Assembly (NCBI GenBank): GCA_964616615.1
Contig: CAZTRJ010000004.1
Location: 1 to 46,309, forward strand
Source: an uncultured Dehalococcoidales bacterium
GTDB taxonomy: Bacteria; Chloroflexota; Dehalococcoidia; Dehalococcoidales; DAOVUZ01
DNA length: 46,309 bases
Direction: 5' to 3'
The notes below the pieces were generated by a model. It was not told where the DNA came from and did not search any database. It saw nothing but the letters and a program-made list of their open reading frames with translations. Of this stretch, positions 6,881-22,586 are shown one piece after another (the stretch's first letter is position 1; each line of letters begins with the position of its first letter). Position numbers and translations under genes: made by a program.

Positions 6881-6895
6881 AAATACCTGAAAAAA

Positions 6896-8081: not shown

Positions 8082-8826
8082 ATGCTGGAGGTTAAGCAGT
8101 TGACAGTAGCCGTAGAGGGAAGAGAAATCCTGCATGATGTGAGTTTGACCATAGGAACTGGGGAGACACATGCTCTCCTCGGTCCTAATGGCAGCGGAAA
8201 GACCACCCTCCTCATGGCAATAATGGGTTTCCCCAGGTACCAGGTAACCAAGGGCAACATTATCTTCAAAGGCAAGGACATAACCAAGGCGACTCTGGAT
8301 GAGAGAGCCCGCTTAGGGATTGGTATATCCTTCCAGCGGCCCCCGGTGGTTCGGGGAGTAAAGACACGCGATATGGTTGGTGCCTCTCTGGGAGACAAAG
8401 AGGATAAAGCAACTATAGATTCACTGGCTGAGAGAGCTAATCTAACCGAGTTTCTAGATAGAGAGATAAACTACGGCTTCTCCGGCGGCGAGATAAAGCG
8501 CTCCGAGCTAATGCAGTTACTGGCTCAGAAACCAGAGTTAACCTTGTTGGATGAGCCTGAGTCCGGGGTTGACCTAGAAAATATCGCCCTGATAGGCAAA
8601 CTGATAAATCAGTTGCTGGAAAAGGATTGTCCAATACGGTTTCGAAAGTGTATGGGGCTTATTATCACCCATACCGGTCATATTCTCGACTTTGTCAATG
8701 CCCGCACCGGCTATATCATGCTTGACGGTAAGATAGGCTGTGAGGGAGACCCCCATGAGATTCTGGCGACAATCAAAGAGAAAGGCTATGAGGAGTGCAT
8801 TAAATGCATCTTGAGAGGTGCACCCA

Positions 8827-8834
<8 letters not shown>
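8082..8834 (+). CDS. sufC: Fe-S cluster assembly ATPase SufC
   Basis: Walker A GPNGSGKTT, signature FSGGE and Walker B LLDEPESGVD, with SufC-like length (250 aa). Confidence 0.85.
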
Positions 8835-10062
<1,228 letters not shown>

Positions 10063-10085
10063 ATAATATCTGACGGAGGTCAACA

Positions 10086-10592
10086 GTGAACCTTAAGGCT
10101 CTATATAAGTTAGGCTACGGTTTATATGTCGTATGCTCAACAAAGGGAGGCAGGCTCAATGGACAAATCGCCAACACCGTGTTTCAGATAACCTCTGAGC
10201 CACCAACTATTGCCGTGAGCATCAACAAAAATAATCTAACCCATGAGTTTATCACGGAAAGCAAGGTCTTTACCGCTTCAGTCCTCTCCCAGGATACACC
10301 CCTCTCTTTCATCGGTCACTTTGGCTTCAAGTCAGGCAGAGACATAGACAAACTAGAGAGCATTAACTATAAAATAGGTGAAACGCAAGCCCCAGTGGTT
10401 ACTGACAATACGCTGGCTTATCTGGAAGCCAGGGTAATTCAACAAGTAGATGTGGGAACCCATACTATTTTTACCGGTGAGGTTGTAGGGGCGGATATTA
10501 TTAAAGAAGGCGAGCCTATGACCTATGCCTATTACCATCAGGTCAAGCGGGGCACCACTCCCAAGACGGCTCCGGTTTATGTTGAGGAGTAA
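10086..10592 (+). CDS. Flavin reductase-like FMN-binding domain protein (N-terminal part of an Hrb-type protein)
   Basis: YGLYVVCSTKGGRLNGQIANTVFQITSEPPTIAVSINK...THTIFTGEVV. GTG start follows GGAGGT. Ends at TAA 10590-10592. Confidence 0.75.
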   Translation: MNLKALYKLGYGLYVVCSTKGGRLNGQIANTVFQITSEPPTIAVSINKNNLTHEFITESKVFTASVLSQDTPLSFIGHFGFKSGRDIDKLESINYKIGETQAPVVTDNTLAYLEARVIQQVDVGTHTIFTGEVVGADIIKEGEPMTYAYYHQVKRGTTPKTAPVYVEE

Positions 10593-10772
10593 AAGGTAGA
10601 AGCTCTCAAAGCACCAAAATACCAGTGTAGCGTTTGCGGCTATATCTATGACCCGGAACTGGGAGACCCCGATGGCGGTATTAAACCGGGGACACCCTTT
10701 GAAGAGATACCAGACGACTGGGTATGTCCCGTCTGCGGAGCCGCTAAGAGCCAGTTTGAAAGAATAGAATAA
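10593..10772 (+). pseudogene. Rubredoxin domain with no start codon, in frame with the upstream flavin reductase across a single TAA
   Basis: Translation is [59 protein letters not shown]. There is no ATG/GTG/TTG between the TAA and the first CxxC. Confidence 0.75.
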
Positions 10773-10871
10773 AGGAAAAGTATTCCTATTAAAGGTAGTG
10801 CTAGAATCAAGCACACCGAGGTTGAGCAGGAAGATTATAGAAGATTATAAGGAAATAGTGCAGGACCGGAC

Positions 10872-10901
10872 TTGACAAATCACAGCATAGCAGGTTATAA
10901 T
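10872..10901 (+). promoter_or_regulatory. Sigma70-type promoter candidate: TTGACA-18-TATAAT
   Basis: TTGACA at 10872-10877 and TATAAT at 10896-10901, about 85 nt upstream of the DUF134 gene. Confidence 0.45.
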
Positions 10902-10982
10902 AATTATGGGCGTAAGTGCATAATATAGTCTGCTATGTGGACAGATTTATGGACATAAGCCCGTAATACCTAATTAGGGAGA

Positions 10983-11468
10983 TTGGAAAATATCGTGGGC
11001 AGACCACCATTATGGCGACGAGTAAATTATATTCCACAGGTCTCCTATTTCAAACCCGCTGGCGTACGCCTGGCTCAATTGCAGGAAATATGCCTTGCTG
11101 TTGAGGAGGCAGAAGCAATTCGTCTTAAGGAACTGGAAGGTCTGGAGCAGGAGGAATGCGCTCAAAGGATGAATATTTCACGGACGACCTTTGCCCGCGT
11201 GTTGACTTCAGCCCGGCAGAAAGTGGCTGATGCTCTGCTTAATGGTAAGGCGATAAAGATTGAGGGCGGAAACTTTGAGATGGCGGCTCGCCGCTTCAGG
11301 TGTGTTAATGGTCACGAATGGGATGTGCCGTTTGAAGTAATGACAAATACGCCTGCTCAGTCTTGCCCTACCTGCGATACTCCAACTATCATGCCTGTCT
11401 GGCCCTGGGGACCGGGTTGGGGTAGAGGTGGTGGAAGACGACGCCACAGTGGAGGACACAATTGGTGA
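10983..11468 (+). CDS. DUF134-type putative DNA-binding protein with a Zn-ribbon and a Gly/Arg-rich tail
   Basis: GRPPLWRRVNYIPQVSYFKPAG...EEAEAIRLKELEGLEQEECAQRMNISRTTFARVLTSARQKVADAL, then CVNGHEW...CPTCDTP, then WGRGGGRRRHSGG. The start could instead be GTG 10995. Confidence 0.65.
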   Translation: MENIVGRPPLWRRVNYIPQVSYFKPAGVRLAQLQEICLAVEEAEAIRLKELEGLEQEECAQRMNISRTTFARVLTSARQKVADALLNGKAIKIEGGNFEMAARRFRCVNGHEWDVPFEVMTNTPAQSCPTCDTPTIMPVWPWGPGWGRGGGRRRHSGGHNW

Positions 11469-11520
11469 AGGAATTCAGCGACTCACCATGAGGAGGTGAG
11501 AAGCAGGAAGGAGGTAGAAT

Positions 11521-11913
11521 ATGCCTAACGGATTTGGTAGAGGGAGAGGTGGAGGATTCGGTTTTAGAGGGGGTATGGGCTTTGGATTTCGAGGTAGCTC
11601 TCCTCCCTGGCCCTATGTGGGTATAGGTAGAGGGGGATTGCCACGATGCGGTTACTTCCTCAGTGGAGCTGCGGGAATACCGGCACAATGGCCATACCAA
11701 CAGTTCCCTTATCCCGCTAGCCCAGGATTCGGTGTCGGGGAAGGCTCATATCCTCCCTATGCCACAGCGTCACCCGCTTTTGGTAACGCTCCCTCCGCTC
11801 CCCAGATGACTCGTGAGCAGGAGCTTGATTTCCTGAAGAACCAGGCTGAAGCAATAAAGGGGCAACTGGAGCAGATAGAGACCAGGATTCAGCAACTGGG
11901 AAGTGAGACTTAA
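11521..11913 (+). CDS. DUF5320-like protein (RGG/FG low-complexity N-terminus, C-terminal coiled-coil helix)
   Basis: MPNGFGRGRGGGFGFRGGMGFGFRG ... MTREQELDFLKNQAEAIKGQLEQIETRIQQL. Confidence 0.6.
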   Translation: MPNGFGRGRGGGFGFRGGMGFGFRGSSPPWPYVGIGRGGLPRCGYFLSGAAGIPAQWPYQQFPYPASPGFGVGEGSYPPYATASPAFGNAPSAPQMTREQELDFLKNQAEAIKGQLEQIETRIQQLGSET

Positions 11914-11952
11914 GCGCCGCTTAGAATGATTAACAGCTACAAGGAGTAAATT

Positions 11953-12504
11953 ATGAGAATTGCTATTTCGGCTACGGGTCCAACTCTGGATGCCGAGGTA
12001 GACCCTCGTTTCGGCCGATGTCAATACTTTATCATTGTCGACCCGGAGACAATGGAATTTGAAGCCCTGGAAAACTCCAATGCCATGGCTGGCGGTGGGG
12101 CTGGTATCTCCACCGGACAGATGATTGCCAGTAAGGGGGTAGAGGCAGTGCTCACTGGCAACTGTGGCCCTAACGCCTACCAGGTATTGTCTGCTGCCGG
12201 GCTTCAGGTGATAACCGGCGTCTCAGGAAGGATAAGGGACGCCATTAAGGAATACAAGTTGGGCACATTTTCTGCAACCCAGCAGCCTAATGTAGCTGAC
12301 CACTTCGGCATGAGCTACGGTGGGGGTATGGGAATGGGCCGTGGTATGGGCATGGGCCGAGGCATGGGTATGGGAGCCGGAATGATGCCACCAGTTAGCC
12401 CATTATCTCAGCCTCCAAGCCCGGAGCATGAACTTGAAGCGCTCAAAACACAGTCACAGGCGCTGGCGCAGCAACTGGCTGAAATTCAACGCCACATTGA
12501 ATAA
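11953..12504 (+). CDS. NifB/NifX-family cofactor-binding domain protein fused to a GMGR repeat and a DUF5320-type helix
   Basis: MRIAISATG...VDPRFGRCQYFIIVD...GVEAVLTGNCGPNAYQVLSAAGLQV, then GGGMGMGRGMGMGRGMGMGAGMM, then ELEALKTQSQALAQQLAEIQRHIE. Confidence 0.7.
   Translation: MRIAISATGPTLDAEVDPRFGRCQYFIIVDPETMEFEALENSNAMAGGGAGISTGQMIASKGVEAVLTGNCGPNAYQVLSAAGLQVITGVSGRIRDAIKEYKLGTFSATQQPNVADHFGMSYGGGMGMGRGMGMGRGMGMGAGMMPPVSPLSQPPSPEHELEALKTQSQALAQQLAEIQRHIE
12325..12378 (+). repeat. Three tandem 18-bp (six-codon GMGMGR) repeats inside the NifX-like gene
   Basis: ggtatgggaatgggccgt / ggtatgggcatgggccga / ggcatgggtatgggagcc, read directly. Confidence 0.8.
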
Positions 12505-12530
12505 CTTGAACAGAAGAGGAGGTGACAGTC

Positions 12531-12782
12531 ATGCCAATCTATGAATACCAGTGCACTCAATGTGAGGAGAGGTTTGAAGTCCGTCAGTCCATGGGAGAGG
12601 ATGGCTCCAAATTACATTGCCCTAAATGCACTGCCCCGAATCCGAAACGGGTGATTTCCTCATTCTCCAGCCCGGGCTCAAGCACATCTGAGTCTTCGAA
12701 GATAAGCCCCCCTACCACCGTCCGTAGGAGCAGATGTGGACCACAATACCGCCTTGACAAACTCAAAAAAAAGAGGAAGTGA
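12531..12782 (+). CDS. FmdB-family zinc-ribbon protein
   Basis: MPIYEYQCTQCEERFEV...LHCPKCTAPNPKRVISSF. ATG follows AGAGGAGGTGA. Confidence 0.7.
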   Translation: MPIYEYQCTQCEERFEVRQSMGEDGSKLHCPKCTAPNPKRVISSFSSPGSSTSESSKISPPTTVRRSRCGPQYRLDKLKKKRK

Positions 12783-12786
12783 AGCT

Positions 12787-12984
12787 ATGCCCAGAGGAGA
12801 TGGCACCGGACCACCCACTAGACGCGGTCAGAGAGGTGGTCGGATGAGAGGTAACCAACCTGGAGTTGGTCCAGGTGGAAACTGCGTCTGTCCCAGTTGC
12901 GGCACGAAGGTATCCCACAAGTTGGGAACACCCTGTTACACTCTGAGCTGCCCTAAGTGCGGGACGAAGATGACGAGAGCATGA
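12787..12984 (+). CDS. DUF5320-like mini-protein with an RGG tract and a Zn-ribbon
   Basis: MPRGDGTGPPTRRGQRGGRMRGNQPGVGPGGNCVCPSCGTKVSHKLGTPCYTLSCPKCGTKM. Confidence 0.55.
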   Translation: MPRGDGTGPPTRRGQRGGRMRGNQPGVGPGGNCVCPSCGTKVSHKLGTPCYTLSCPKCGTKMTRA

Positions 12985-13847
12985 TAATATCGGTCGCCAG
13001 TGGTAAAGGCGGGACCGGTAAGACCCTGGTAGCTACCAGTCTTGCCCTCGCCTTGAGGGAAAGAGACAATGTGCAGCTTCTTGACTGTGACGTGGAAGAA
13101 CCAAACGACCATGTTTTCCTGAAGCCAATTATTACCCCCAGTGAAACAGTTTCTATCCCCGTGCCCAAAGTGGATGAGGAAAAATGTAACTACTGCGGTA
13201 AATGTGCCGAGGTCTGCGCCTACAATGCTATCGCCGTGATAAACCAGAAGGTGCTCGTCTTTCCCGAACTCTGCCACGGCTGTGGCGCCTGTAGTTATCT
13301 CTGTCCGGAAAAGGCTATTTCCGAGGCGGCAAATGAAATCGGGGTAATAGAGATGGGATATGCGGATGGCGTGGACTTTATCCATGGGAAGCTTGCCATT
13401 GGCAAGGCTATGGCACCACCTATTATCAGACAGGTTAAAGAACATGCTAGCCATACAGGTGCCGTCATCATTGATGTTTCTCCGGGGACATCATGTCCGG
13501 TAGTAGAAGCAGTCAAGGATAGCGATTTCTGCCTCCTGGTAACCGAGCCCACACCCTTTGGACTTAATGACCTGGTTCTGGCAGTAGAGACAGTGAGACG
13601 GCTTAATATACCCTGCGGCATAGTCCTCAACCGTGTCGGGGTAGGAGATGGAAAGACAGAGGAATACTGCCAGAAGGAGAATATACCCATTCTACTTACT
13701 ATTCCTCTGAATACCGAGATTGCTCACTTATACTCAAAGGGCATTCCTCTGGCCGAGGGCTTACCACAATGGAAGAGTAGTTTCCTAGAGCTTTTCGATA
13801 AGATTACGGAGATAGTAAATGAAGGAAATAGTGATACTAAGCGGTAA
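12981..13847 (+). CDS. MinD/ParA-type P-loop ATPase with an inserted 2x[4Fe-4S] ferredoxin module
   Basis: ASGKGGTGKT Walker A. CNYCGKCAEVC and CHGCGACSYLCP cluster motifs. ATGA overlap with the upstream stop. Confidence 0.8.
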   Translation: MIISVASGKGGTGKTLVATSLALALRERDNVQLLDCDVEEPNDHVFLKPIITPSETVSIPVPKVDEEKCNYCGKCAEVCAYNAIAVINQKVLVFPELCHGCGACSYLCPEKAISEAANEIGVIEMGYADGVDFIHGKLAIGKAMAPPIIRQVKEHASHTGAVIIDVSPGTSCPVVEAVKDSDFCLLVTEPTPFGLNDLVLAVETVRRLNIPCGIVLNRVGVGDGKTEEYCQKENIPILLTIPLNTEIAHLYSKGIPLAEGLPQWKSSFLELFDKITEIVNEGNSDTKR

Positions 13848-14679
13848 GGGAGGCACAGGAAAGACCAGCATCGTAGCTTCCTTTGCTGCCCTGGCTCAAA
13901 GCAAGGTGCTGGCTGATTGTGATGTCGATGCCGCTGACCTTCACTTACTGCTCAGTCCCTCAATTAAAGAGGAAAATGAGTTTTGGAGTGGGCAGGTTGC
14001 CGTTATTGATGAGGAAAAGTGCACTCAGTGCGGCCTTTGCCAGGATGTATGCCACTTTGACGCCATTGATGATTTCAGGGTTGACCCTATCTCCTGCGAG
14101 GGCTGTGGCTTCTGCTCGCATATATGCCCCGTTGAAGCTATCACTATGACGGAGAACTTAGCTGGTCAGTGGTCTATCTCTGATACCAAATATGGCCCAC
14201 TCGTTCACGCCAGACTGGGGATTGCCCAGGAGAACTCGGGGAAACTGGTAGCGGTTGTTAGGCAGCAGGCTAAACAAATTGCGGAAAAGCATGGACTCGA
14301 TTACATCATTAGTGACGGGCCTCCGGGCATCGGCTGCCCGGTCATCTCCTCACTTTCTGGAGCTAAGATGGCTCTTCTGGTAACTGAGCCGACGCTGTCG
14401 GGAATACACGACCTGGAGAGAGTCCTCGGTGTTTGTCACCACTTTGGTATTCCCGCTCTAATCTGTATTAATAAGTATGACCTTAATCAGGACAATACCC
14501 GCCAGATTGAGAGGTATTGCCTTAATAATGGGATAGAGGTAGCTGGCAGAATCCCCTTTGATAGCATTGTAACCGAAGCAATAGCACATGGTCTGCCCGT
14601 GGTAGAATATGTCCGGAACGGCGTGTCGCACCAGATAGAAGCCCTTTGGGAGATAGTCTCAAAATCGCTTAATAACTAA
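13819..14679 (+). CDS. MinD/ParA-type P-loop ATPase with an inserted 2x[4Fe-4S] ferredoxin module (paralog)
   Basis: LSGKGGTGKT Walker A. CTQCGLCQDVC and CEGCGFCSHICP motifs. 29-nt overlap with the previous gene. Confidence 0.8.
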   Translation: MKEIVILSGKGGTGKTSIVASFAALAQSKVLADCDVDAADLHLLLSPSIKEENEFWSGQVAVIDEEKCTQCGLCQDVCHFDAIDDFRVDPISCEGCGFCSHICPVEAITMTENLAGQWSISDTKYGPLVHARLGIAQENSGKLVAVVRQQAKQIAEKHGLDYIISDGPPGIGCPVISSLSGAKMALLVTEPTLSGIHDLERVLGVCHHFGIPALICINKYDLNQDNTRQIERYCLNNGIEVAGRIPFDSIVTEAIAHGLPVVEYVRNGVSHQIEALWEIVSKSLNN

Positions 14680-14741
14680 GGAGCTAAGATGCCGTAGAGA
14701 TTAAAAGCCTATATTCAAATATCAGCTCAGGAGGTCTATAA

Positions 14742-15080
14742 ATGAGGTATGCAATACCGGTAACTAGCGGTGGGCTTTCAGCACACTTTGGTCACTGCGA
14801 GCATTTCGCTTTGATTGACGTTGATGAAAAAACAAAGAAGGTTTTGAGAAAGGAGCTTGTCCTCTCACCAGGGCACCAGCCCGGTCTTCTCCCCGAATGG
14901 CTGGCAGAACAGGGAGTCTCAATGGTGATTGCTGGGGGCATGGGTTCCCGTGCTCAGAGCCTTTTTAACCAACATCACATCGGCGTTGTCATCGGCGCCC
15001 TGGAGAGTGACCCGGAGAAAGCAGTCTTGAGTTACCTAAATGGTACACTGGCTACCGGCGATAATATATGTGACCACTAG
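14742..15080 (+). CDS. NifB/NifX-family (dinitrogenase FeMo-cofactor-binding fold) small protein
   Basis: MRYAIPVTSGGLSAHFGHCEHFALIDVD...GVSMVIAGGMGSRAQSLF. Confidence 0.7.
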   Translation: MRYAIPVTSGGLSAHFGHCEHFALIDVDEKTKKVLRKELVLSPGHQPGLLPEWLAEQGVSMVIAGGMGSRAQSLFNQHHIGVVIGALESDPEKAVLSYLNGTLATGDNICDH

Positions 15081-15107
15081 GATGAAAACTAAATTGGAGG
15101 ACAATTT

Positions 15108-16124
15108 ATGGCAACTGAGGAACAAATAAGAGAGAGCCTGAACGGGGTGTTAGTTCCCGATATCAAGCGGAGCCTGGAAGGTTTAAATCTGGTGCATGAG
15201 GTCACTGTGTCTGACCGGGAGGTTAAGATTACTCTGGCTTCAACAGCACTAGGTAGTGCCGCTCAGGATTGGGTTAAAACCAAGTCTAAGGAAGTCATAG
15301 AGAGACTACCTAAGGTAAACAAAGTAGAGGTAGAATTTATCGAGGCTAAGCCAGCAGAGCTAAATGAGATTGGTCACACCTTTGCTGTAATGAGTGGCAA
15401 GGGGGGTGTAGGCAAGTCGCTGGTAGCTAGTTTAATGGCGGTAACACTAAAGCGTCAGGGCTATGAAGTAGGTATCCTTGATGCTGACATTACCGGCCCC
15501 AGCATTCCCAAGATGTTTGGCATTACTGGCCGACCCACTGGCAGTGACACCGGAATCTTGCCCGTCTTATCAAGGTCAGGGATTCCAGTCATGTCCATCA
15601 ATCTTCTTCTACCCAACGAGGATGACGCTGTTATCTGGCGTGGGCCCCTGATTGGGAAAACGATTACCCAGTTTGGGGAACAGGTGCTCTGGGGCAAACT
15701 TGATTATCTGATTATAGACTTGCCCCCGGGCACAGCTGACGCCCCACTTACCGTAATGCAATCATTCCCAATATCAGGAGTGGTCATCGTTTTCACCCCT
15801 CAGGACCTGGTGGAGATGATAGTTAGAAAAGCAGTAAACATGGCTCATAAAATGGGAAAAACTGTCCTGGGTGTGGTGGAGAATATGAGCTATTTCTATG
15901 TCCCTGAGATAGATAAAAAAATTGAACTCTTTGGTAAAAGTCGCCGAGAGGAAATGGCACAAGCCGCCCATGCCCCGCTTTTGGGACAACTACCAATAGA
16001 CCCAGAACTGGCTAAGCTCTGTGATGAGGGAAATATTGAACGCTACAGTGGCGATGTTATGAATAGCTTCAGCGAGTCTCTTTCTAAAGCTATATCAGCT
16101 AAGATAAAACAAGACAGGGAGTAG
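15108..16124 (+). CDS. mrp: Mrp/NBP35 (ApbC) family Fe-S cluster carrier ATPase with an N-terminal DUF59 domain
   Basis: DUF59-like N-terminus, deviant Walker A SGKGGVGKS, and DLPPGTAD. Confidence 0.85.
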   Translation: MATEEQIRESLNGVLVPDIKRSLEGLNLVHEVTVSDREVKITLASTALGSAAQDWVKTKSKEVIERLPKVNKVEVEFIEAKPAELNEIGHTFAVMSGKGGVGKSLVASLMAVTLKRQGYEVGILDADITGPSIPKMFGITGRPTGSDTGILPVLSRSGIPVMSINLLLPNEDDAVIWRGPLIGKTITQFGEQVLWGKLDYLIIDLPPGTADAPLTVMQSFPISGVVIVFTPQDLVEMIVRKAVNMAHKMGKTVLGVVENMSYFYVPEIDKKIELFGKSRREEMAQAAHAPLLGQLPIDPELAKLCDEGNIERYSGDVMNSFSESLSKAISAKIKQDRE

Positions 16125-16127
16125 GCA

Positions 16128-16589
16128 ATGGCTTCGGAATTCGACGAACTTCAGGAACTTATCAAAGCCGAGATGAGAAAAATCTACTCCGAGACGGCTA
16201 TTGACCATTCCATGAACCCCAGAAATGTAGGCAATATAGACAATGCCGACGGCTTGGCTAAGGTAACTGGTTCCTGTGGCGATACCATGGAGATATGGCT
16301 CAAGGTAAACAACAATACCATTGCCAATGCTACTTTCATGACTGATGGCTGTGGCACCAGTATTGCTGCCGGAAGTATGGTTACTGAGTTAGCCAAGGGA
16401 AAGAGTGTTGGCGAAGTTTGGAAGATTAGACCGCAGGATGTTCTGAACGCTCTAGGCGGGCTACCGAAAGAAAGCGAACATTGTGCTCTCCTGGCAGCAA
16501 ATACACTGAAGGAAGCGCTGAAAGACTACCTGGCGATGAAGAAGGAGCCATGGAAAAAGGCTTACCGTAAACATCAAGGAGAGGAATAG
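16128..16589 (+). CDS. IscU/NifU N-terminal-type Fe-S scaffold protein
   Basis: NPRNVG...GSCGDTMEIWLKV...FMTDGCGTSIAAGS...SEHCALLAANTL (three conserved Cys). Confidence 0.8.
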   Translation: MASEFDELQELIKAEMRKIYSETAIDHSMNPRNVGNIDNADGLAKVTGSCGDTMEIWLKVNNNTIANATFMTDGCGTSIAAGSMVTELAKGKSVGEVWKIRPQDVLNALGGLPKESEHCALLAANTLKEALKDYLAMKKEPWKKAYRKHQGEE

Positions 16590-16592
16590 ACG

Positions 16593-17231
16593 ATGCCACC
16601 TATAGTTTCAGTGATAGGCAATTCAAAATCAGGCAAGACAACCCTTATTACCAAGCTTGTTCAGGAATTGAAGTTGCGAGGTTATCGGGTGGCTACCATC
16701 AAGCATATCCCTCAGGGAATTGATTTTGATGAGGCGGGTAAGGATAGCTGGCGCCACATCCAAGCCGGCAGCGAGGCTACAGCTGTTAGCTCGCCAGACA
16801 AGATTGTGCTGATAAAGCCTGTTGCTCAAGATGCCACCCTTGATGAGACAGCTCATCTCCTGGGTGAGGACTACGATATTATTCTTACCGAGGGTTTCAA
16901 GCATGGGGATGCCCCTAAAATAGAAGCCCACCGTAAGGATGCTGGCCCACTGCTCAAAGATATTAAGAAGCTTATCGGCATAGTCACCGATGAGCCTCTG
17001 GAAACCAAGGCAAGGCAGTTCTCCTTTGATGATATTAATGGTCTAGTTGACCTGTTAGAGAAAGGCTTCATAAAGCCACAAGCAGAGCGAATTTCTCTTT
17101 ATGTCAATAATACACCTATAACTCTGACTGCTTTCCCCAAGCAGATTATTACTAGCGTCCTCCTGGCTATGGCCTCTTGCCTTAAAGGGGTAAGGGAAAT
17201 CAGGAATATTCAGATTTTCTTGAGGAAGTAA
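16593..17231 (+). CDS. mobB: Molybdopterin-guanine dinucleotide biosynthesis adaptor MobB with a C-terminal extension
   Basis: VSVIGNSKSGKTTLITKLVQELKLRGYRVATIKH...GKDSWRHIQAGS. Confidence 0.75.
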   Translation: MPPIVSVIGNSKSGKTTLITKLVQELKLRGYRVATIKHIPQGIDFDEAGKDSWRHIQAGSEATAVSSPDKIVLIKPVAQDATLDETAHLLGEDYDIILTEGFKHGDAPKIEAHRKDAGPLLKDIKKLIGIVTDEPLETKARQFSFDDINGLVDLLEKGFIKPQAERISLYVNNTPITLTAFPKQIITSVLLAMASCLKGVREIRNIQIFLRK

Positions 17232-17319
17232 CGAGGGTGAGCCAGAGAGAGAAAGTAGCTATTATCATTGACATGGTAGAGACAATGGTGGCCAGGCTAG
17301 GGCATGTGGAGGCAGAATA

Positions 17320-18294
17320 GTGGTGAATCCTATTATCTATGGGCCAGTCCCATCCAGGCGACTAGGACACAGCCTAGGAATAAACAATATCCCCCCTAAG
17401 ATATGCAGTTATTCCTGCGTTTATTGCCAGCTGGGAAACACGGTGAACATGCAGGTTGAGCGTGAGACTTTCTATGAGCCAAGCGAGATAGTCCAGAGAG
17501 TGAAGGAGAAGGTTAAACAAGTCAGGAAAAAGGGTGAACCAATTGACTATCTAACCTTTGTCCCCGATGGTGAGCCTACTCTGGATATTAATCTTGGTAA
17601 AGAGATTGAGCTTCTGAATTCTTTAGATATTAAAATTGCAGTTATTACTAATGCTTCTCTCATCTGGTGCCAAGATGTTAGACAAGATTTACAAAAAGCC
17701 GATTGGGTGTCACTAAAGGTAGATATGGCAAGCCAAGGAATATGGCGTAGAATCAATAGACCACAAAAATTGTTGAACCTTGAAGAAATTTTAGACGGAA
17801 TGCTGAAGTTCGCTGATACTTTTGAGGGTGAACTAACCACCGAGAGCATGCTTATCCAGGGTATAAACGATGGTAGCCAGGAAATCACGAGAATAGCCCG
17901 CATCCTGGCAGAGTTGAAACCAAAAAAAGCCTACCTGGCAATTCCGACAAGACCACCAGCAAAAAGGACAATAAGTGCTGCCAGTGAACAAGCCATCAAT
18001 ATGGCATTCCAAATTCTTAAACAGAGATTAAGTAACGTAGAATATTTAATCGGCTACGAAGGAAACACCTTTGCCTTTACCGGTAATGTTGAAGATGACT
18101 TACTCAGCATTACCTCGGTGCATCCTATGAGAGAAGAAGCTGTTATAGAACTACTGAACAAGGCTGATACCGATTGGAAAGTTGTCGACAAGCTAATAGA
18201 AGACGGCAGCCTCATGGAGGTGGAATATCAGGGAAGGAAATTTTATATGAGGAAATTGCCCCCAAGTAGGAGGAAACCAGCGGAGGGCGGTTAA
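17320..18294 (+). CDS. Radical SAM protein (COG0731-like) of unknown specific function
   Basis: YGPVPSRRLGHSLGINNIPPKICSYSCVYCQLG carries CX3CX2C. GTG start follows GTGGAGG. Confidence 0.75.
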   Translation: MVNPIIYGPVPSRRLGHSLGINNIPPKICSYSCVYCQLGNTVNMQVERETFYEPSEIVQRVKEKVKQVRKKGEPIDYLTFVPDGEPTLDINLGKEIELLNSLDIKIAVITNASLIWCQDVRQDLQKADWVSLKVDMASQGIWRRINRPQKLLNLEEILDGMLKFADTFEGELTTESMLIQGINDGSQEITRIARILAELKPKKAYLAIPTRPPAKRTISAASEQAINMAFQILKQRLSNVEYLIGYEGNTFAFTGNVEDDLLSITSVHPMREEAVIELLNKADTDWKVVDKLIEDGSLMEVEYQGRKFYMRKLPPSRRKPAEGG

Positions 18295-18336
18295 TTAGAT
18301 ACTTGGCGCTCAATAAGGAGTTTAAAAGGTGAAACA

Positions 18337-18651
18337 ATGCTACAAATAAGGAAAGACCTATGTGTTGGCTGTGGGCTCTGTGCTGAGAATTGCCCACAAC
18401 AAGCCATCTCACTTGTTACCGGTCAGGCTGAAATAGACCAAAGGCGGTGCAACCAGTGCCGCTTTTGCCTCGAGGTTTGCCCCCAGAGGGCAATTGTAGA
18501 AATGGTCCCGGTATCAAAGCCAGAGCTACAAGCTACGGTTGTTTCACTGAAGCAAAGGACAGAGAACCTTATCGTGCAGATTGAAAAGCTGAAGCACCAG
18601 AAGGCTATCAGGGCTGAAACTACTGGTCAAAACTGGAGGGAACAGAGTTGA
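18337..18651 (+). CDS. 2x[4Fe-4S] ferredoxin with a C-terminal coiled-coil helix
   Basis: CVGCGLCAENCP and CNQCRFCLEVCP, with the tail ELQATVVSLKQRTENLIVQIEKLKHQ. Confidence 0.75.
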   Translation: MLQIRKDLCVGCGLCAENCPQQAISLVTGQAEIDQRRCNQCRFCLEVCPQRAIVEMVPVSKPELQATVVSLKQRTENLIVQIEKLKHQKAIRAETTGQNWREQS

Positions 18652-19559
18652 GAACCTACCTTGATTGCCTGCCCTGCCTGTTGAGCCAGGCTCTAAAGGC
18701 GGCGAGAGCAGCAACCGATGACGAGGGGGTCCACCGCCAGGTCATAGACGCAGTAGCCGCTATGATTCCACAGCTTTCGTTGGGCTTGAGACCACCGGAG
18801 ATAGCGCAGCAGGGCTACCGGCTAATTTACCAAATAACCAGAAATGATGACCCCTTCTACCAGGCAAAGGCTGAAGCTAACCAGGCGGCTTTAGCTCTTT
18901 ACCCACACCTCAAGCAGGTGGTGGCAGATTCAGAAGAGCCACTGCTCACGGCATGTAAGCTGGCTATAGGGGGCAACTCAATTGACCTTGGTCCCAATTT
19001 TGAGCAGGTTGATATGGATAGTATCGTGGCAACAGCCATAGCATCTCCGCCAGCTATCAATGACTATCAACAGTTCCGAAGCAGTATTAATAACTCACGG
19101 CACATCTTATACCTGGGAGACAATGCTGGTGAGATTGTGTTTGACCGTGTGCTCATTGAGGAGCTTCACCAGTTAAAGGAGCTGGAGATTGACTTTGTGG
19201 TAAGGGAAAGACCAATTATAAATGATGTCACATTAGATGATGCTATAACTGTGGGCATGGACCGGGCGGCCAGAATTATCTCCAGTGGCTCGGATGCTCC
19301 CGCCACCATTCTCTCTCAGTGCTCCTCTGAGATGCTAAAGCTCTATTATTCCGCCGACATAATAATCGCCAAAGGGCAGGGAAACTACGAGTCCTTGAAC
19401 GAGGAGCAGGGTAATATCTTCTTTCTGCTCAGGGCTAAGTGTCCCTTGGCAGCAGACTTGCTGGGGGTAAGCGTTGGCGATGCCATTCTGAGGCAAAATC
19501 CTGCCCGGGCTAAAGCTAAGGGTAACAAGGATTATCGAACAGAACCCCGAAAATTATGA
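18648..19559 (+). CDS. DUF89 / ARMT1-like metal-dependent phosphatase family protein
   Basis: MRTYLDCLPCLLSQALKAARAAT... and ...YLGDNAGEIVFD...IIAKGQGNYESL. TTG start overlaps the ferredoxin stop by 4 nt. Confidence 0.65.
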   Translation: MRTYLDCLPCLLSQALKAARAATDDEGVHRQVIDAVAAMIPQLSLGLRPPEIAQQGYRLIYQITRNDDPFYQAKAEANQAALALYPHLKQVVADSEEPLLTACKLAIGGNSIDLGPNFEQVDMDSIVATAIASPPAINDYQQFRSSINNSRHILYLGDNAGEIVFDRVLIEELHQLKELEIDFVVRERPIINDVTLDDAITVGMDRAARIISSGSDAPATILSQCSSEMLKLYYSADIIIAKGQGNYESLNEEQGNIFFLLRAKCPLAADLLGVSVGDAILRQNPARAKAKGNKDYRTEPRKL

Positions 19560-19695
19560 TACCCTCTACTTCTTTAGAAGTTCTCCTTGCTACGAATCAA
19601 CTCTAGAGTTATCATAACCGGAGAAATACTATAAAAAGCCAGGTCATTAACCAAGTGTATTACAACTATATAAGCTGAGGCAAAAAAGATAAGTC

Positions 19696-20415
19696 ATGTC
19701 CAATCAAGAATGGCCATCCCCAAAGTCAACAAGCACCACAGGGATTCCTTATCCCGGAGCAGCATTATTCGACCCCCTGGCATTGGCCTACGATAGCTGG
19801 TTTGATAGAGAGGGAAAAGTTATCTTCGATATCGAGGTGCGCGCCTTCCAGGAAATCCTAGCTTCTTTACCCCAACCCTGGCTTGAGGTTGGGGTGGGTA
19901 GTGGTCGCTTTGCTCAAGCCTTGGGCATAGACACCGGAATTGACCCTTCTATTAAACTATTGGAGATGGCTGGGAGGCGGGGAATTACTGTGCTCCTGGG
20001 AAGAGGAGAACAGCAAATTTTTAATGTGGCGACTTTCGGGACGGTGTTTCTGATAGTTACCCTTTGTTTTGTCGACTCGGCAACTGATGCTTTGAAAGAG
20101 TCCCGCCGCATTTTAGCACCTGGGGGGAAGATAGTATTAGGCTTGGTCTTAAAGGATAGTCCCTGGGGCAAATTCTATGAACAGAAGAAGAGGGAGGGGC
20201 ATCGTTTCTATAAATATGCCACCTTCTACCGGTATGATGAAGTGGTAACATTACTGGAAGAAGCTGGTTTTTTGATTGAGGAGGTTGTTTCAACACTTTT
20301 TCAAGAACCAGACAGGGTAGAACAGGTAGAATTACCACGGAGGGGCTTTGCTCCCGATGCCGGGTTTGTGATAATCATGGCTGGAGAGGGCGACGAAAGA
20401 CATGGCCAACTTTAA
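19696..20415 (+). CDS. Class I SAM-dependent methyltransferase
   Basis: Motif I LEVGVGSGRFA, and later LAPGGKIVLG. Confidence 0.7.
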   Translation: MSNQEWPSPKSTSTTGIPYPGAALFDPLALAYDSWFDREGKVIFDIEVRAFQEILASLPQPWLEVGVGSGRFAQALGIDTGIDPSIKLLEMAGRRGITVLLGRGEQQIFNVATFGTVFLIVTLCFVDSATDALKESRRILAPGGKIVLGLVLKDSPWGKFYEQKKREGHRFYKYATFYRYDEVVTLLEEAGFLIEEVVSTLFQEPDRVEQVELPRRGFAPDAGFVIIMAGEGDERHGQL

Positions 20416-20704
20416 TGAGATAGATGAGGCACGAAGGCTATTGGGATTGGGTGCAGCGGCGACACTGAAGGAAATTAAGTCCGCTTATAGGCGGATGGCT
20501 TTCCGCCATCATCCCGATATGCACACCGATAGCGATTCCACCGGGGACGAGGAGTTTATGAAAAGATTGAATTGGGCGTATAAACTCCTCATCGAGTACT
20601 GCCATGACTATAAGTATACCTTTCGTGAAGAGGATGTAGCCAGAACATACACTCATGACGAGTATCTAAGAAGATATTATCACGGATGGTTTGATGGTAT
20701 CTAA
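20402..20704 (+). CDS. Stand-alone J-domain (DnaJ-like) protein
   Basis: LKEIKSAYRRMAFRHHPDMH (HPD motif). 100 aa, with a 14-nt overlap with the methyltransferase gene. Confidence 0.7.
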   Translation: MANFNEIDEARRLLGLGAAATLKEIKSAYRRMAFRHHPDMHTDSDSTGDEEFMKRLNWAYKLLIEYCHDYKYTFREEDVARTYTHDEYLRRYYHGWFDGI

Positions 20705-20834
20705 TGCGGAAGAAAGGGGGTAATACGCTTGAGGTAATCGGCAAGAATCTAATCCGCATGGTTCTTAGGAAAGGAAATATACCCCCGATTTGAGTTAAGG
20801 AAATGAAAGGTTTCCACTAGCAACTCTACAGATA

Positions 20835-21233
20835 CTACTCCAGCAGAATTTGTTTAAGCTTTTCGAGAGCATTACGTTGTAACCGAGAGACGTGCATTTG
20901 GGAAATGCCTAGACGCTCCGCGATCTTGGTTTGAGATAGACCTTTGTAAAATTTCAAATGTATAATGGTCTTTTCCCGCTTAGCAAGTCTACGAACGGCA
21001 TCTGAGAGAGTTCCCCTATCTGCCAGCTTTTCAAATTCTGTATCCTCACTTGCCAGGTAATCCATAAGGCTTGAGGATTCTCCGTTACCGCCACTATCGT
21101 ATTCAGCATCTAAGGATAGTGGCTTACCCCGCTTATCCACTTCAAAGGTGTCATATACTTCCTCTTGTAACAACCCTGTTGCCTGAGCAATTTCTGTAAT
21201 AGTAGGCGACCGGCCCAATTTGTGGCTAAGCAC
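20835..21233 (-). CDS. C-terminal part (regions 3-4) of a SigB/SigF/SigG-group sigma-70 factor
   Basis: LGRSPTITEIAQATGLLQEEV... and IIHLKFYKGLSQTKIAERLGISQMHVSRLQRNALEKL. In frame with the ORF at 21261-21605. Confidence 0.8.
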   Translation of the reverse strand: MLSHKLGRSPTITEIAQATGLLQEEVYDTFEVDKRGKPLSLDAEYDSGGNGESSSLMDYLASEDTEFEKLADRGTLSDAVRRLAKREKTIIHLKFYKGLSQTKIAERLGISQMHVSRLQRNALEKLKQILLE

Positions 21234-21260
21234 TTCGACCGTTCTCTCTACTACGACCTT

Positions 21261-21590
21261 TTATCTCTGTAGCTTTCTAGGTATCTTAACTGCCCAGCCA
21301 TGATCACGGAAGTAATTCTTGACCTCCCCAACTATCACCGGGACAGCAAAGGCTACAAAACTGTCTCCTCGAGTCGGGTTATATTTCTCAATGGCTTTAA
21401 GTAATCCTATGCTTCCTACTTGAATGAGGTCTTCCGGGGGTTCACCTGAGCGGCTGAATCTTCTGCATAGCCGGCGCACCAGAGGTAAATGGCCTTCTAC
21501 CAAACGTTCCCGGGCTGTCATGTCCCTCGACTGCTGATACTGTTGGAGCAGTTGCTTGGTGTCTGATAGCGTGGAGTCCTTGATTCCCAT
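21261..21590 (-). CDS. N-terminal part (region 2) of the same sigma-70 factor, ending at in-frame TAA 21263-21261
   Basis: LVEGHLPLVRRLCRRF...DLIQVGSIGLLKAIEKYNP...FVAFAVPVIVGEVKNYFRDHGWAVKIPRKLQR*. ATG 21590 follows GGAGGT. ATG 21605 is an alternative start. Confidence 0.8.
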   Translation of the reverse strand: MGIKDSTLSDTKQLLQQYQQSRDMTARERLVEGHLPLVRRLCRRFSRSGEPPEDLIQVGSIGLLKAIEKYNPTRGDSFVAFAVPVIVGEVKNYFRDHGWAVKIPRKLQR

Positions 21591-21621
21591 TGCACCTACC
21601 TCCATATATACTCAATAAATA

Positions 21622-21721
21622 TAGACCCCAGCTTCCTTTACCCTCACTTATAGAGGGGCACTTCTCCAAAGTGCTGAAGCTGGGGTCTACCTGCTCAATA
21701 ACATAGGGGTAACCCTATGTT
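21622..21721. other. Structured intergenic element: a three-way junction (14-bp closing stem) plus a 9-bp hairpin
   Basis: P1 is 21622-21635 paired with 21676-21689 (perfect). P2 is 21641-21645/21653-21657. P3 is 21658-21663/21669-21674. A separate hairpin is 21700-21708/21713-21721 with a GTAA loop on the + strand. Confidence 0.4.
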
Positions 21722-21779
21722 CGCATGGCTAGAGCAGCCTACAGTGTCACAATTTCGCTCTCAAAACCGAGAGCTAGTC

Positions 21780-22109
21780 TCATGGCGACTTGCCATTTCT
21801 CTCTTTCAGGTAACTTTCATAGGCCTTCTCCATAGCAGCTACTACCGCTCTCTTAACGGGTCCACGGAAACGTCTTTGTATCTCATCTTTCGGACCGCTT
21901 AACGTTTGTTTAAGGTCATAACCAATAAGCAAATCGAGGATAAACTTCTGTCCTAGTCTCGGGATAGGGGAACAAGAAGCATTGACTATGAGGTCTGTGG
22001 TTAAGTCAACCTCTAGTTCTAAACTGAGAACGTCGGTCCCAGACCCTGAAACTATGTTTTCTGGCAACCTCGCGTAACCCACAAAAAGAAATGTTTCTCC
22101 CTTTTGCAT
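21780..22109 (-). CDS. Conserved small protein, possibly DUF3870-like (name uncertain)
   Basis: 109 aa, MQKGETFLFVGYARLPENIV...LELEVDLTTDLIVNASCSPIPRLGQKFI. It sits between the anti-sigma-like and sigma genes. Confidence 0.4.
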   Translation of the reverse strand: MQKGETFLFVGYARLPENIVSGSGTDVLSLELEVDLTTDLIVNASCSPIPRLGQKFILDLLIGYDLKQTLSGPKDEIQRRFRGPVKRAVVAAMEKAYESYLKERNGKSP

Positions 22110-22154
22110 GCTCGTATTTACCGTCTCCGGTCCCTGGCTCTAGCCAGGTTACTG

Positions 22155-22586
22155 TTATGTTCCTGTTATTAATCGGTACTTAACCATGCGGATTACAGTC
22201 TTACCGTCCACCTCGCTACCGAATTCCACTTCATCAACCAAACTCCTGAGTAACGCCAGGCTTTCCTCTCCTTCGTCAGTACTAAGAGAGCTTGTGTAGT
22301 CTTTTGGGCCCGCGATTAGAATCTCTATTTCATGAGGGTACACTGACAAGATGACAGCTAGCTCATTCACTTCTGAGACCCCGATTCCCGGCGTGACATG
22401 TTTGAGAGCCAAGTCAAATACTTCCGATACCGCCACGCGGAGCTGCATTATCTCGTCATAATTGAAAGATACGGCCCCAGCAACTACTCCTGTAGCTGCC
22501 CGAAGGATAGGTAAGTACTGGGGTTTTAATGGAAGTCGTAGCTCTATAGTGTCATTGGTCCAGCTTCCTCCAATTAATTTCTTCAT
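22155..22586 (-). CDS. RsbW/SpoIIAB-like anti-sigma factor with degenerate ATP-binding motifs
   Basis: IELRLPLKPQYLPILRAATGVVAG...MQLRVAVSEVFDLALKH...LLRSLVDEVEF...GKTVIRMVK. The overall pattern resembles HATPase_c_2, but the N-box Asn and the G-boxes are not recognisable. Confidence 0.5.
   Translation of the reverse strand: MKKLIGGSWTNDTIELRLPLKPQYLPILRAATGVVAGAVSFNYDEIMQLRVAVSEVFDLALKHVTPGIGVSEVNELAVILSVYPHEIEILIAGPKDYTSSLSTDEGEESLALLRSLVDEVEFGSEVDGKTVIRMVKYRLITGT

Follow-up and report, generated by a model that had tools for sequence, protein, structure and literature searches.

What would a run of fourteen genes for metal-cluster handling serve in a stretch of DNA that encodes no obvious client enzyme? 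The question is raised by positions 1–46,309 of contig CAZTRJ010000004.1 of an uncultured Dehalococcoidales bacterium (hereafter the window), in which genes g1–g14 occupy positions 10983–19559 of the forward strand. Judged by the similarity of the encoded proteins, the core of this cluster is the gene set of the 'orange protein' (ORP) system, which is restricted to anaerobes, very widespread and without an accepted function since it was first described. We propose, with a probability of about 0.45, that the cluster is a general iron–sulfur (Fe–S) and metal-sulfide buffering and delivery system of strict anaerobes, as opposed to a service to one enzyme.

An ORP-type core

Three sets of related loci were collected, 80 around relatives of g7, 36 around relatives of Desulfovibrio gigas ORP and 33 around relatives of g12, and the window proteins were mapped onto them by tblastn. 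The product of g3 (11953–12504, +) consists of an ORP-type NifX-fold domain, a GMGR-repeat tail and a coiled coil (Orp8/IssA-like; Pfam Nitro_FeMo-Co and DUF5320). Its residues 2–112 match D. gigas ORP (2WFB, E 2.2e-20), the best solved relative, with MTH1175 a close second (E 2.1e-19), and a 70-amino-acid tail extends beyond the ORP domain. Genes g6 (12981–13847, +) and g7 (13819–14679, +) encode paralogous ATPases, Orp3-type and Orp4-type, respectively, each with the deviant Walker A motif of MinD/ParA and an inserted 2×[4Fe–4S] module (Pfam CbiA/ParA and two Fer4 motifs in both). In an ORP locus (L119) of Oleidesulfovibrio, the genus to which D. alaskensis, a species used for work on MrpORP, belongs, two adjacent ATPases correspond to g6 (234 bits against 115) and g7 (286 bits against 140), respectively, as reciprocal best hits. 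No solved structure of an Orp3/4-type ATPase was found; only MinD and ferredoxin pieces match. The g7 family comprises 786 representatives at E ≤ 1e-30 (clustered at 50% identity), many of them about 600 amino acids long with two g7-like stretches (P0121–P0143 and similar). We read these as tandem g6–g7-type fusions, which predict a g6–g7 heterodimer.

The fused MrpORP of the Oleidesulfovibrio locus matches both g9 (171 bits) and g8 (123 bits). Gene g8 (14742–15080, +) encodes a stand-alone Di-Nase (NifX-like) domain (Pfam Nitro_FeMo-Co), and g9 (15108–16124, +) a DUF59 domain followed by an Mrp/NBP35 P-loop ATPase (ParA (NUBPL/Mrp) 294 bits, and FeS_assembly_P). On the NCBIfam MrpORP model (NF041136), g9 covers positions 1–251 at 316 bits and g8 positions 265–365 at 122 bits; neither reaches the 450-bit cut-off, the domains being on separate polypeptides. 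Because the model positions divide between them in this way, g8 and g9 are best described as a split MrpORP, with the Di-Nase part first. The g8 protein reads SAHFGHCE, with Ser for the first Cys of CxHFGHCE, and ends in NICDH, and thus keeps the HFGHCE and terminal CDH motifs of the Di-Nase domain described by Pardoux et al. (PMC6345978). The g9 protein aligns with the P-loop domain of MrpORP (DVU2109/Dde3202) and differs from it in an added N-terminal DUF59 domain and in the absence of the CxxC (C215/C218) shown to be necessary for the bridging [4Fe–4S] cluster. Where CxxC would follow ENMS, the g9 sequence is ENMSYFYVPEIDKK, a form shared without exception by the 30+ Dehalococcoidia-type orthologues (ENMSY(L/F)YVPEIDKK), whereas the cluster Mrp of other phyla, MrpORP included, reads ENMSGFxCPxCG.

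The initial annotation had likened the core to the ORP complex of D. vulgaris and had named orthology as the point on which the comparison would turn. Orthology was tested on Desulfovibrionaceae loci retrieved with D. gigas ORP, those of Oleidesulfovibrio and Desulfovibrio desulfuricans among them, and the reciprocal best hits of g6 and g7, the match of g3 to 2WFB and the split MrpORP bear the comparison out. Its two MinD/ParA ATPases with 2×[4Fe–4S] modules and its two small NifB/NifX-fold proteins (g3 and g8) are likewise upheld, and its Mrp/NBP35 call stands for g9 as a family assignment, but for a protein without the carrier CxxC.

Work on D. vulgaris showed that Orp3, Orp4 and Orp8 co-purify and that MrpORP binds Fe–S clusters, which it passes to Orp3/Orp4 as well as to aconitase. 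Expression of the orp operons there is confined to potentials of about −425 mV, and in the view of those authors the role of the system is unclear (PMC6345978, PMC8359166). The set of D. vulgaris Hildenborough (Orp3, Orp4, Orp5, Orp8 and Orp9) shares with the window the adjacent paralogous MinD-type ATPases with 2×[4Fe–4S] inserts (1:1 orthologues by way of Oleidesulfovibrio), the ORP-type NifX-fold protein and the Mrp and Di-Nase modules. The two differ in that the window has what is most likely one operon in place of two divergent ones, an MrpORP that is split, inverted in order and CxxC-less, and an ORP with a Gly/Met/Arg tail and coiled coil. A sigma-70 promoter, a DUF134 first gene and a palindromic box are present instead of OrpR and sigma-54, and there are extra Gly/Arg and Zn-ribbon mini-proteins, IscU, MobB, a radical S-adenosylmethionine (SAM) enzyme, a ferredoxin, DUF89, a methyltransferase and a J-protein. 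Within the window, the cluster and its flanks contain no gene for a sigma-54 activator such as OrpR; among related loci, the OrpR-type PAS sigma-54 activator is often near clusters, only in those of Desulfobacterota, Holophaga and Nitrospirota type. The ORP system and MrpORP are known already, and the locus is a distinct variant of them, set apart by the presumed DUF134/sigma-70 control with its box, the split CxxC-less Mrp, the tailed ORP, the RGG/Zn-ribbon adaptors and the conserved accessory enzymes.

A probable sigma-70-type operon with a candidate operator

Upstream of g1 lies a sigma-70-type promoter, TTGACA-18-TATAAT (10872–10901, +), with its −35 box at 10872–10877 and its −10 box at 10896–10901, the sole 12/12 match in a scan of 7400–21400. 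Behind it, the genes overlap by ATGA at 12981–12984 (g5/g6), by 29 nucleotides (nt) at 13819–13847 (g6/g7) and by TTGA at 18648–18651 (g13/g14), and non-overlapping neighbours within 10983–19559 are separated by 3–88 nt. The run of + strand genes continues past g14 through a class I SAM methyltransferase gene (19696–20415, +; Pfam Methyltransf_11) and, overlapping it by 14 nt, a gene for a 100-amino-acid J-domain protein with an HPD motif (20402–20704, +; DnaJ domain E 2e-11), up to the first opposite-strand gene. Both probably belong to the unit, because they sit between g11 and g12 in relatives (L123–L125, L127 and L129). The fourteen tightly packed co-directional genes, their three overlaps and the promoter are thus all as the initial annotation had them, and only its extent needs revision, to a likely 16 genes (10983–20704). 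No convincing intrinsic terminator was found between the genes or just after the cluster, and 10872–20704 is most likely one sigma-70-driven operon. At Rfam gathering thresholds, the whole window yields only two adjacent tRNA genes at 34384–34542 (−) and no riboswitch or leader RNA, and a permissive scan of 10500–12000, the g1 leader included, gave no match.

The first gene, g1 (10983–11468, +), encodes the putative DUF134 regulator that had been placed at the front of the cluster (Pfam DUF134, E 1.7e-23, with a sigma-70 region-4-like helix-turn-helix (HTH)). The HTH is followed by a C-x3-H … C-x2-C ribbon and a cationic Gly/Arg/Trp tail with an isoelectric point (pI) of 12. Its leader contains two copies of a 20–22-nt repeat, both resembling a 20-bp palindrome, TTATGrnCATATGnyCATAA, that recurs upstream of DUF134 genes. 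Copy 1, TTATGGGCGTAAGTGCATAA (10904–10923), begins 2 nt after the −10 box and has three mismatches to TTATGGNCATATGNCCATAA; copy 2, TTATGGACATAAGCCCGTAA (10947–10966), lies 37 nt upstream of the g1 start. In related loci, the equivalent place is taken by perfect 20-bp palindromes, TTATGGACATATGTCCATAA or TTATGGGCATATGCCCATAA. Across 1.67 Mb of loci and the window, TTATGGNCATATGNCCATAA with at most three mismatches occurs at 33 sites against about 0.6 expected; the window itself has two sites, both in the g1 leader, against 0.02 expected from shuffles. In 24 of 31 loci, the DUF134 gene directly follows the site, which starts about 30 nt after TTGACA and hence right after the −10 box, a position that fits a repressor site. 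It is found in Chloroflexota, Clostridia, Ignavibacteria, Zixibacteria and Desulfobacterales and is replicated in L123 and L137, which come from the independent g12 locus set. Elsewhere the site precedes the ORP gene (L076, L095, L099 and L100) or a DUF364 gene (L021), and in L050 it is some 400 nt away from the DUF134 gene, on the upstream side, with an intervening open reading frame (ORF). The leader also has a perfect tandem repeat, GAAGATTATA ×2, at 10830–10849, just upstream of the −35 box, and a 17-nt inverted repeat (82% complementary) within 10886–10937, which spans the −10 box and palindrome copy 1.

The C-terminal part of the DUF134 protein varies between lineages. In Dehalococcoidia-type members, the HTH leads into a C-x3-H … CP-x-C ribbon, which is conserved, and then a Gly/Arg/Trp tail; the HTH of Desulfovibrio-type loci, Desulfobacterales L086/L090 and Dehalococcoidia L066 is instead fused to an ORP/NifX-like domain. 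As its C terminus swaps for the cargo-binding ORP fold, the DUF134 protein is most simply read as a putative sensor of the cargo of the system. In the Desulfovibrionaceae loci L092 and L093, the DUF134 gene directly precedes the ORP gene, and for that reason orp7 of D. vulgaris is presumed to be the DUF134 gene. Our literature searches returned no functional account of DUF134, DUF5320 or UPF0251, no paper linking Dehalococcoid with dinitrogenase iron-molybdenum cofactor and no earlier description of the operator, of DUF134–ORP fusions or of a link to IssA storage.

Cationic segments and likeness to IssA

Between the regulator and the ATPases, the cluster encodes further small proteins. Gene g2 (11521–11913, +) encodes a Gly/Arg/aromatic-rich protein with a DUF5320-type C-terminal coiled coil (25.8 bits against a 27-bit cut-off), g4 (12531–12782, +) an FmdB-family zinc ribbon with a basic C terminus (Zn_ribbon_8 E 3e-15, TIGR02605) and g5 (12787–12984, +) a mini-protein with an MPRGDGTGP-RGG N terminus and a 6-Cys ribbon, for which Pfam matches are sub-threshold only. 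The most likely start of g4 is the ATG at 12531, preceded by a GAGGAGG ribosome-binding site, and that of g5 the ATG at 12787. Apart from g2, slightly below threshold, and g5, Pfam and NCBIfam searches supported the family calls of the initial annotation.

The tail of g1, the N-terminal 60 residues of g2, the linker of g3 and the N terminus of g5 have pI values of 8.8–12 and consist mostly of Gly, Arg and Trp/Phe or Met. A G/R-rich stretch is present in 54 of 57 g2-family members (the family occurs in 43 of the 80 g7 loci) and in 31 of 34 g5-family members, and the combined g3/g8 NifX family (131 ORFs) includes 25 tail-bearing members. Similar C-terminal amphipathic helices (coiled coil) end g2, g3 and g13, and in L007 a ferredoxin, an RGG segment and the coil are fused in one protein. 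In a motif census, the N-terminal motif MPxxDGTGP was confined to the g2 family, the g5 family and two Fur-family proteins; these cluster-adjacent regulators open with MP(W/R)RDGTGP, as the mini-proteins of the g5 and g2 families do (for example, L058:682-1152 and L073:133-603).

This composition recalls IssA, the thioferrate store of Pyrococcus furiosus, whose disordered cationic tail (pI 10.7), rich in Gly, aromatic residues and Arg, was proposed to wrap anionic thioferrate, and Vaccaro et al. noted an uncharacterised mesophilic 'IssX' clade with Gly-rich tails (PMC5524996). As in IssA, g3 has a globular NifX-type domain (IPR003731), here followed by a Gly-rich, positive and presumably disordered tail that resembles that of IssA in part; the g3 protein is about as near to MTH1175, an IssA-clade member (PMC5524996), as to ORP, and the g1 and g2 segments are Trp/Phe/Gly/Arg-rich like the IssA tail. 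The differences are that the g3 tail consists of GMGR repeats with few aromatics and ends in a coiled coil, that the cationic segments here are spread over four proteins including the regulator, and that g3 is encoded in an operon with ATPases. At pI 8.8 and rich in Gly, Met and Arg, the g3 tail fits the IssA tail less well than do the g1, g2 and g5 segments (pI 11.4–12).

A published proteome offers a further parallel. Methanococcus voltae grown on pyrite accumulates thioferrate-like iron (PMC8516115), and in the supplement of that study the IssA-like Mvol_0693 and Mvol_0689 are up 4.3× and 2.3×, two Fe–S-binding 'cobyrinic acid a,c-diamide synthase' proteins, Mvol_0691 and Mvol_0692, 5.0× and 2.6×, and the radical SAM protein Mvol_0698 4.0×. 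Mvol_0691/0692 lie between Mvol_0689 and Mvol_0693, with Mvol_0698 nearby. Judged by annotation and locus order, the Mvol_0689–0693 region may be an ORP-type cluster with a response to Fe/S supply, a link not made in PMC8516115.

Conservation of core and accessory genes

Exact copies of g7 are found only on short metagenome contigs, and the nearest genomes by g7 are Dehalococcoidales metagenome-assembled genomes at 72–76% identity. Conservation was counted over the 35 loci with at least 4 kb upstream and at least 6 kb downstream of g7, 24 of them Chloroflexota-like and 11 from other phyla (counts are given in that order). Present in all 35 is g6 (24/24, 11/11); g3 follows in 34 (24/24, 10/11), g5 in 30 (23/24, 7/11), g8 in 26 (19/24, 7/11), g9 in 25 (19/24, 6/11), g10 in 21 (17/24, 4/11) and g12 in 19 (13/24, 6/11). 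The regulator gene g1 is frequent in the Chloroflexota-like loci (21/24, 3/11); counts are lower for g13 (9/24, 4/11), g14 (3/24, 5/11), the methyltransferase (5/24, 3/11) and the J-domain gene (1/24, 4/11). Co-conservation across anaerobe genomes, which the initial annotation had left to be checked, thus holds for the core, and the order of the accessory genes is shuffled across phyla. The same annotation had called the IscU, radical SAM, ferredoxin and DUF89 genes an unusual extension of the set; they are present but recur across phyla and are not peculiar to this genome, and this recurrence strengthens the idea of a supercluster. MobB, also counted there as part of the extension, is genuine (129.5 bits to TIGR00176) but rare, being confined to close relatives (4/24, 0/11).

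Individual loci show how the parts are combined. The closest relative (L120, 85–89% identity) has the same order g9-g10-g11-g12-g13-g14; loci of Desulfovibrionaceae, Desulfobacterales, Holophaga and Nitrospirota share the order DUF134, ORP, g6-type, g7-type and small NifX-like gene; and an archaeal Methanocellaceae locus (L055) has DUF134, an RGG protein, Mrp, ORP, DUF89, both ATPases and radical SAM. Methyltransferase homologues recur in Omnitrophota and Elusimicrobia loci, and the J-domain gene inside or adjoining the cluster in relatives. Around g12 orthologues with adequate flank, about 60% of loci have ORP/NifX-like genes nearby. Other neighbours recur as well, among which the Fur-family regulators, the flavoprotein, DUF364 and the TauE-family protein have iron and sulfur themes: Fur-family regulators beside ORP clusters (20 of 80 loci), a metallo-β-lactamase-fold protein (21 loci), a coenzyme A (CoA)-disulfide-reductase-like (NSR-like) flavoprotein (17 loci, often between g7 and g8), DUF364/DUF4213 (12 loci; Pfam label 'putative heavy-metal chelation'), a CoA-binding protein (8 loci), DUF169 (7 loci) and a TauE-family membrane protein (a Pfam family of sulfite exporters). 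The flavoprotein and the small CoA-binding protein often stand between the ATPase pair and the Di-Nase/Mrp genes (for example, L024:10879-12225 and L011:10895-11278). The cluster or its immediate surroundings at 15 loci also include a 98-amino-acid protein with no Pfam or NCBIfam match (comp 13; for example, L015:11046-11342), which has no counterpart in the window.

The accessory genes begin with g10 (16128–16589, +), an IscU/NifU_N-type scaffold (Pfam NifU_N 115 bits) with three Cys ligands, in GSCGD, TDGCGT and EHCALLA, that stays below NCBIfam equivalog cut-offs (NifU_clost 134.9 bits against 187.9). Next, g11 (16593–17231, +) is a MobB-type P-loop protein with a C-terminal extension and the Walker A motif GNSKSGKTT, above the TIGR00176 cut-off of 76.2 bits, and g13 (18337–18651, +) a 2×[4Fe–4S] ferredoxin (Pfam) with the C-terminal amphipathic helix. 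The last of the fourteen, g14 (18648–19559, +), encodes a DUF89/ARMT1-like metal-dependent phosphatase of the PH1575/AF1104 subfamily (PF01937, 220.9 bits) that matches 2G8L (E 1e-42) and 2FFJ (E 2e-40) in the Protein Data Bank (PDB) and lies under the NCBIfam equivalog cut-off (179.7 against 440). The DUF89 literature is centred on eukaryotes. DUF89 relatives act on phosphopantetheine derivatives, and this, together with the CoA-linked neighbours, hints at a CoA/sulfane-sulfur thread.

Gene g12 (17320–18294, +) encodes a single-cluster radical SAM enzyme (Pfam Radical_SAM) with one CxxxCxxC motif, one other Cys and no auxiliary-cluster Cys; its homologues carry the COG0731 name at the Joint Genome Institute, as a COG label only. 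It is not TYW1/wyosine synthase (20.1 bits to TIGR03972 against a cut-off of 318, and no second-cluster Cys), nor does it have the features of NifB, given one cluster motif, no NCBIfam NifB match and generic Foldseek similarity (template-modelling score (TM) about 0.47). The AlphaFold2 model, with a predicted local distance difference test score of 71, retrieves generic radical SAM cores from the PDB in Foldseek, among them the activating enzyme of pyruvate formate-lyase (PFL-AE), NifB, viperin and TYW1 (TM 0.38–0.51); a sequence search of the PDB gave no match, and no NCBIfam equivalog was found. Related loci also contain a shorter radical SAM paralogue to which profile searches gave no functional assignment.

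Parts of this set resemble known assembly systems. The IscU/NifU_N scaffold with three Cys ligands and a small HPD J-domain protein in one unit recall IscU and HscB, and a SufC/SufB-like (minimal SmsCB) pair lies just upstream; unlike ISC, there is no cysteine desulfurase, HscA or ferredoxin reductase here, and the J-protein has no HscB C-domain match. The combination of a radical SAM enzyme, NifX-fold carriers and dimeric deviant-Walker-A Fe–S ATPases is likewise that of NifB, NifX/NafY and NifH, from which the locus differs in having no nif genes, a g12 with one cluster motif and no NifB signature, and ATPases with ferredoxin inserts in place of a subunit-bridging cluster.

Neighbourhood and search for a client

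Upstream of the cluster, 5031–10062 (+) encodes a redox-stress and Fe–S block of a Crp/Fnr-type regulator, a Fer4-domain protein, two rubrerythrins and the SufC/SufB (SmsB-like) pair, with no cysteine desulfurase in that block. The initial annotation had stressed the position of the cluster directly after this pair. The pair is there, but its adjacency is not conserved (sufB in 0/24 and 0/11 loci), and we rejected it as a meaningful link. Between the two, at 10086–10772 (+), a flavin reductase ORF stops at TAA 10590–10592 and is followed directly, in the same frame, by a complete rubredoxin (NF045768, E 1e-29) without an ATG, GTG or TTG of its own before its first Cys pair. This looks like a flavin-reductase–rubredoxin fusion (Hrb-like) broken by one stop codon, which could be a pseudogene, a sequencing error or a site of read-through. 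Downstream, within 20835–22586, the first opposite-strand genes are two short ORFs at 20835–21233 and 21261–21605 (−), whose translations resemble sigma-70 regions 4 and 2 and which are possibly one split sigma-factor gene; an anti-sigma-type kinase (HATPase_c_2) follows, and these genes mark the downstream end of the cluster.

The absence of a client enzyme, which had made the cluster puzzling, is borne out: no nitrogenase, Mo/W enzyme or moa/moe gene was found in the 46-kb window. Nor did one emerge from the relatives. When all ORFs of 119 loci and the window were clustered and the recurrent families profile-searched, no recurrent metalloenzyme client appeared, and no hydrogenase, carbon monoxide dehydrogenase, nitrogenase-like protein or molybdoenzyme recurs among the neighbours of the related loci.

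Proposed function

A buffering and delivery system would account for these features as follows. The NifX-fold proteins g3 and g8 would hold anionic iron-sulfide (metal-sulfide) species, on the model of IssA, aided by the cationic segments of g1, g2, g3 and g5. The g6/g7 pair would bind the ORP protein, as suggested by co-purification of Orp3, Orp4 and Orp8 in D. vulgaris, and would draw on ATP, and perhaps on low-potential electrons supplied by ferredoxin g13, for loading or mobilising the held material. The IscU-type g10, the J-domain co-chaperone and the g8/g9 Mrp module would then hand clusters to many apo-proteins, and g1 may control the operon through the two palindromes right after the −10 box, sensing cluster load with its Cys/His ribbon and cationic tail. 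Because clusters would go to many apo-proteins, no dedicated client gene would be linked, so that the absence of a client would be the expected state and not a gap. As for the radical SAM enzyme, the DUF89 phosphatase, the methyltransferase and MobB, we regard them as accessories, conserved or semi-conserved; the extension genes are a recurrent but separable set, and MobB and the SufCB neighbourhood are local features. This proposal draws on the ORP orthology, the fusions that link its parts, the co-conservation, the iron- and sulfur-themed neighbours, the IssA-like tails, the M. voltae proteomics and the operator.

Several points weigh against it. D. gigas ORP was isolated with a Mo–Cu–S cluster, not an Fe–S cluster, and for the proteins of this lineage we infer metal and ligand by analogy. 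With no CxxC, a Cys-free DUF59 domain and one Cys in the whole protein, g9 cannot be a canonical Fe–S carrier; it may instead be the ATPase partner of g8. To our knowledge, no known Fe–S pathway involves the radical SAM enzyme, DUF89, the methyltransferase or MobB, and about 40% of adequately flanked g12 orthologue loci have no ORP genes nearby. The g3 tail, Met/Gly-rich with few aromatics and only two Arg, is not a close copy of the IssA tail, and Mvol_0691/0692 are putative Orp3/4 orthologues by annotation and locus order. Binding of the palindrome by DUF134 is likewise suggested by position and co-occurrence, and the box is also found in L075 and L076 with no DUF134 gene in reach, in L075 before a Fur-family gene.

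A bolder form of the proposal, tentative and rather unlikely in our estimate, is that the operon builds and manages a protein-templated, thioferrate-like iron-sulfide polymer store, in which tail tethering, ATPase-driven mobilisation and metal-sulfide sensing by DUF134 act together. Cationic Gly/Arg/aromatic tails would tether g3, ferredoxin g13, the adaptors g2 and g5 and the regulator g1 to the anionic mineral, and the shared C-terminal coiled coil would tie g2, g3 and g13 together. The Orp3/Orp4-type pair would be an ATP-driven reductase that frees Fe–S units from the store, and DUF134 would represent a new class of metal-sulfide-sensing repressor acting at the TTATGrnCATATGnyCATAA box.

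Alternative explanations

In sulfidic habitats, molybdate and tungstate are converted to thiomolybdate and thiotungstate. The ORP-type proteins could accordingly bind thiometallate (Mo/W–Cu–S) clusters, for detoxification or for Mo/W cofactor supply, with MobB as the link to molybdopterin. The best solved relative of g3 is itself a Mo–Cu-cluster protein, a bona fide MobB is encoded in the operon, a 'putative heavy-metal chelation' family recurs in 12 related loci, and a methanogen can use thiomolybdate as a Mo source (PMC11484787). We nevertheless consider this explanation improbable: MobB is missing from most Chloroflexota-like loci (present in 4/24) and from all those of other phyla (present in 0/11), no moa/moe/mod gene or Mo/W enzyme occurs in the window or among recurrent neighbours, the leader has no molybdenum cofactor riboswitch or other Rfam element, the recurrent regulators belong to the Fur family, and IscU and Mrp point to Fe–S.

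The operon could also join unrelated modules behind one promoter, an ORP core (g1–g10) and a small-molecule- or RNA-modifying set (MobB, radical SAM, ferredoxin, DUF89, methyltransferase and J-protein). Consistent with this, g12 orthologues stand without ORP genes within 8–10 kb in L131, L132, L145 and L146, MobB is rare, DUF89 occurs in only 3 of the 24 Chloroflexota-like loci, and internal promoters could fit into the 88 nt that precede g12 and the 136 nt that precede the methyltransferase gene, the latter near a 9/12 promoter match at 19587–19615. Yet radical SAM, DUF89, methyltransferase and J-domain genes lie beside ORP cores in Omnitrophota, Elusimicrobia, Ignavibacteria, Planctomycetia and Methanocellaceae in shuffled order, a recurrence not easily accounted for unless the genes are functionally linked; the methyltransferase and J-domain genes are interposed between g11 and g12 in relatives, and no terminator separates the parts. 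We therefore doubt this explanation.

Still less likely is a maturation line for an unknown complex cofactor, in which a NifB-like radical SAM enzyme, NifX-fold carriers and ATPases would insert the product into a client encoded elsewhere. The radical SAM gene does adjoin NifX-like genes in many contexts (L116, L117 and L140–L144), NifB structures are among the top Foldseek hits of g12 (ranks 2, 7 and 17), and the pairing of NifH-like ATPases with NifX-like carriers echoes nitrogenase cofactor assembly. Against these, a g12 with one CxxxCxxC and one other Cys has no ligands for the NifB auxiliary clusters and no NCBIfam NifB match, its Foldseek hits (TM 0.38–0.51) are generic and just as strong for PFL-AE, viperin and TYW1, the 150 loci contain no recurrent candidate client, and g12 is missing from about 45% of the fully flanked ORP loci.

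A spatial or cell-division role, in which the MinD-like ATPases position something at poles or septum, recalls the deviant Walker A of g6 and g7 and the morphological defects of the D. vulgaris orpR mutant and polar localisation of MrpORP (PMC6345978, PMC8359166), but is very improbable given that those authors call the role unclear (PMC8359166), that no division gene lies in the conserved neighbourhood, that ferredoxin inserts, NifX-fold partners, IscU and Fur point to metal chemistry, and that polar localisation could equally reflect a storage body.

Implications

The locus offers a candidate regulator, DUF134, with a sharply defined operator, and fusions that predict binding partners; through published methanogen proteomics it links ORP to IssA-type iron-sulfide storage, and the loss of CxxC from its Mrp is surprising. 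Were the polymer store real, it would give a function to the 25-year-old 'orange protein' and would widen IssA-type storage from Thermococcales to many anaerobic phyla. If storage and delivery of Fe–S material is what the system does, it would be a major iron–sulfur route in sulfidic, anoxic habitats, and its reach would include the organohalide-respiring Chloroflexota, whose enzymes are rich in Fe–S.

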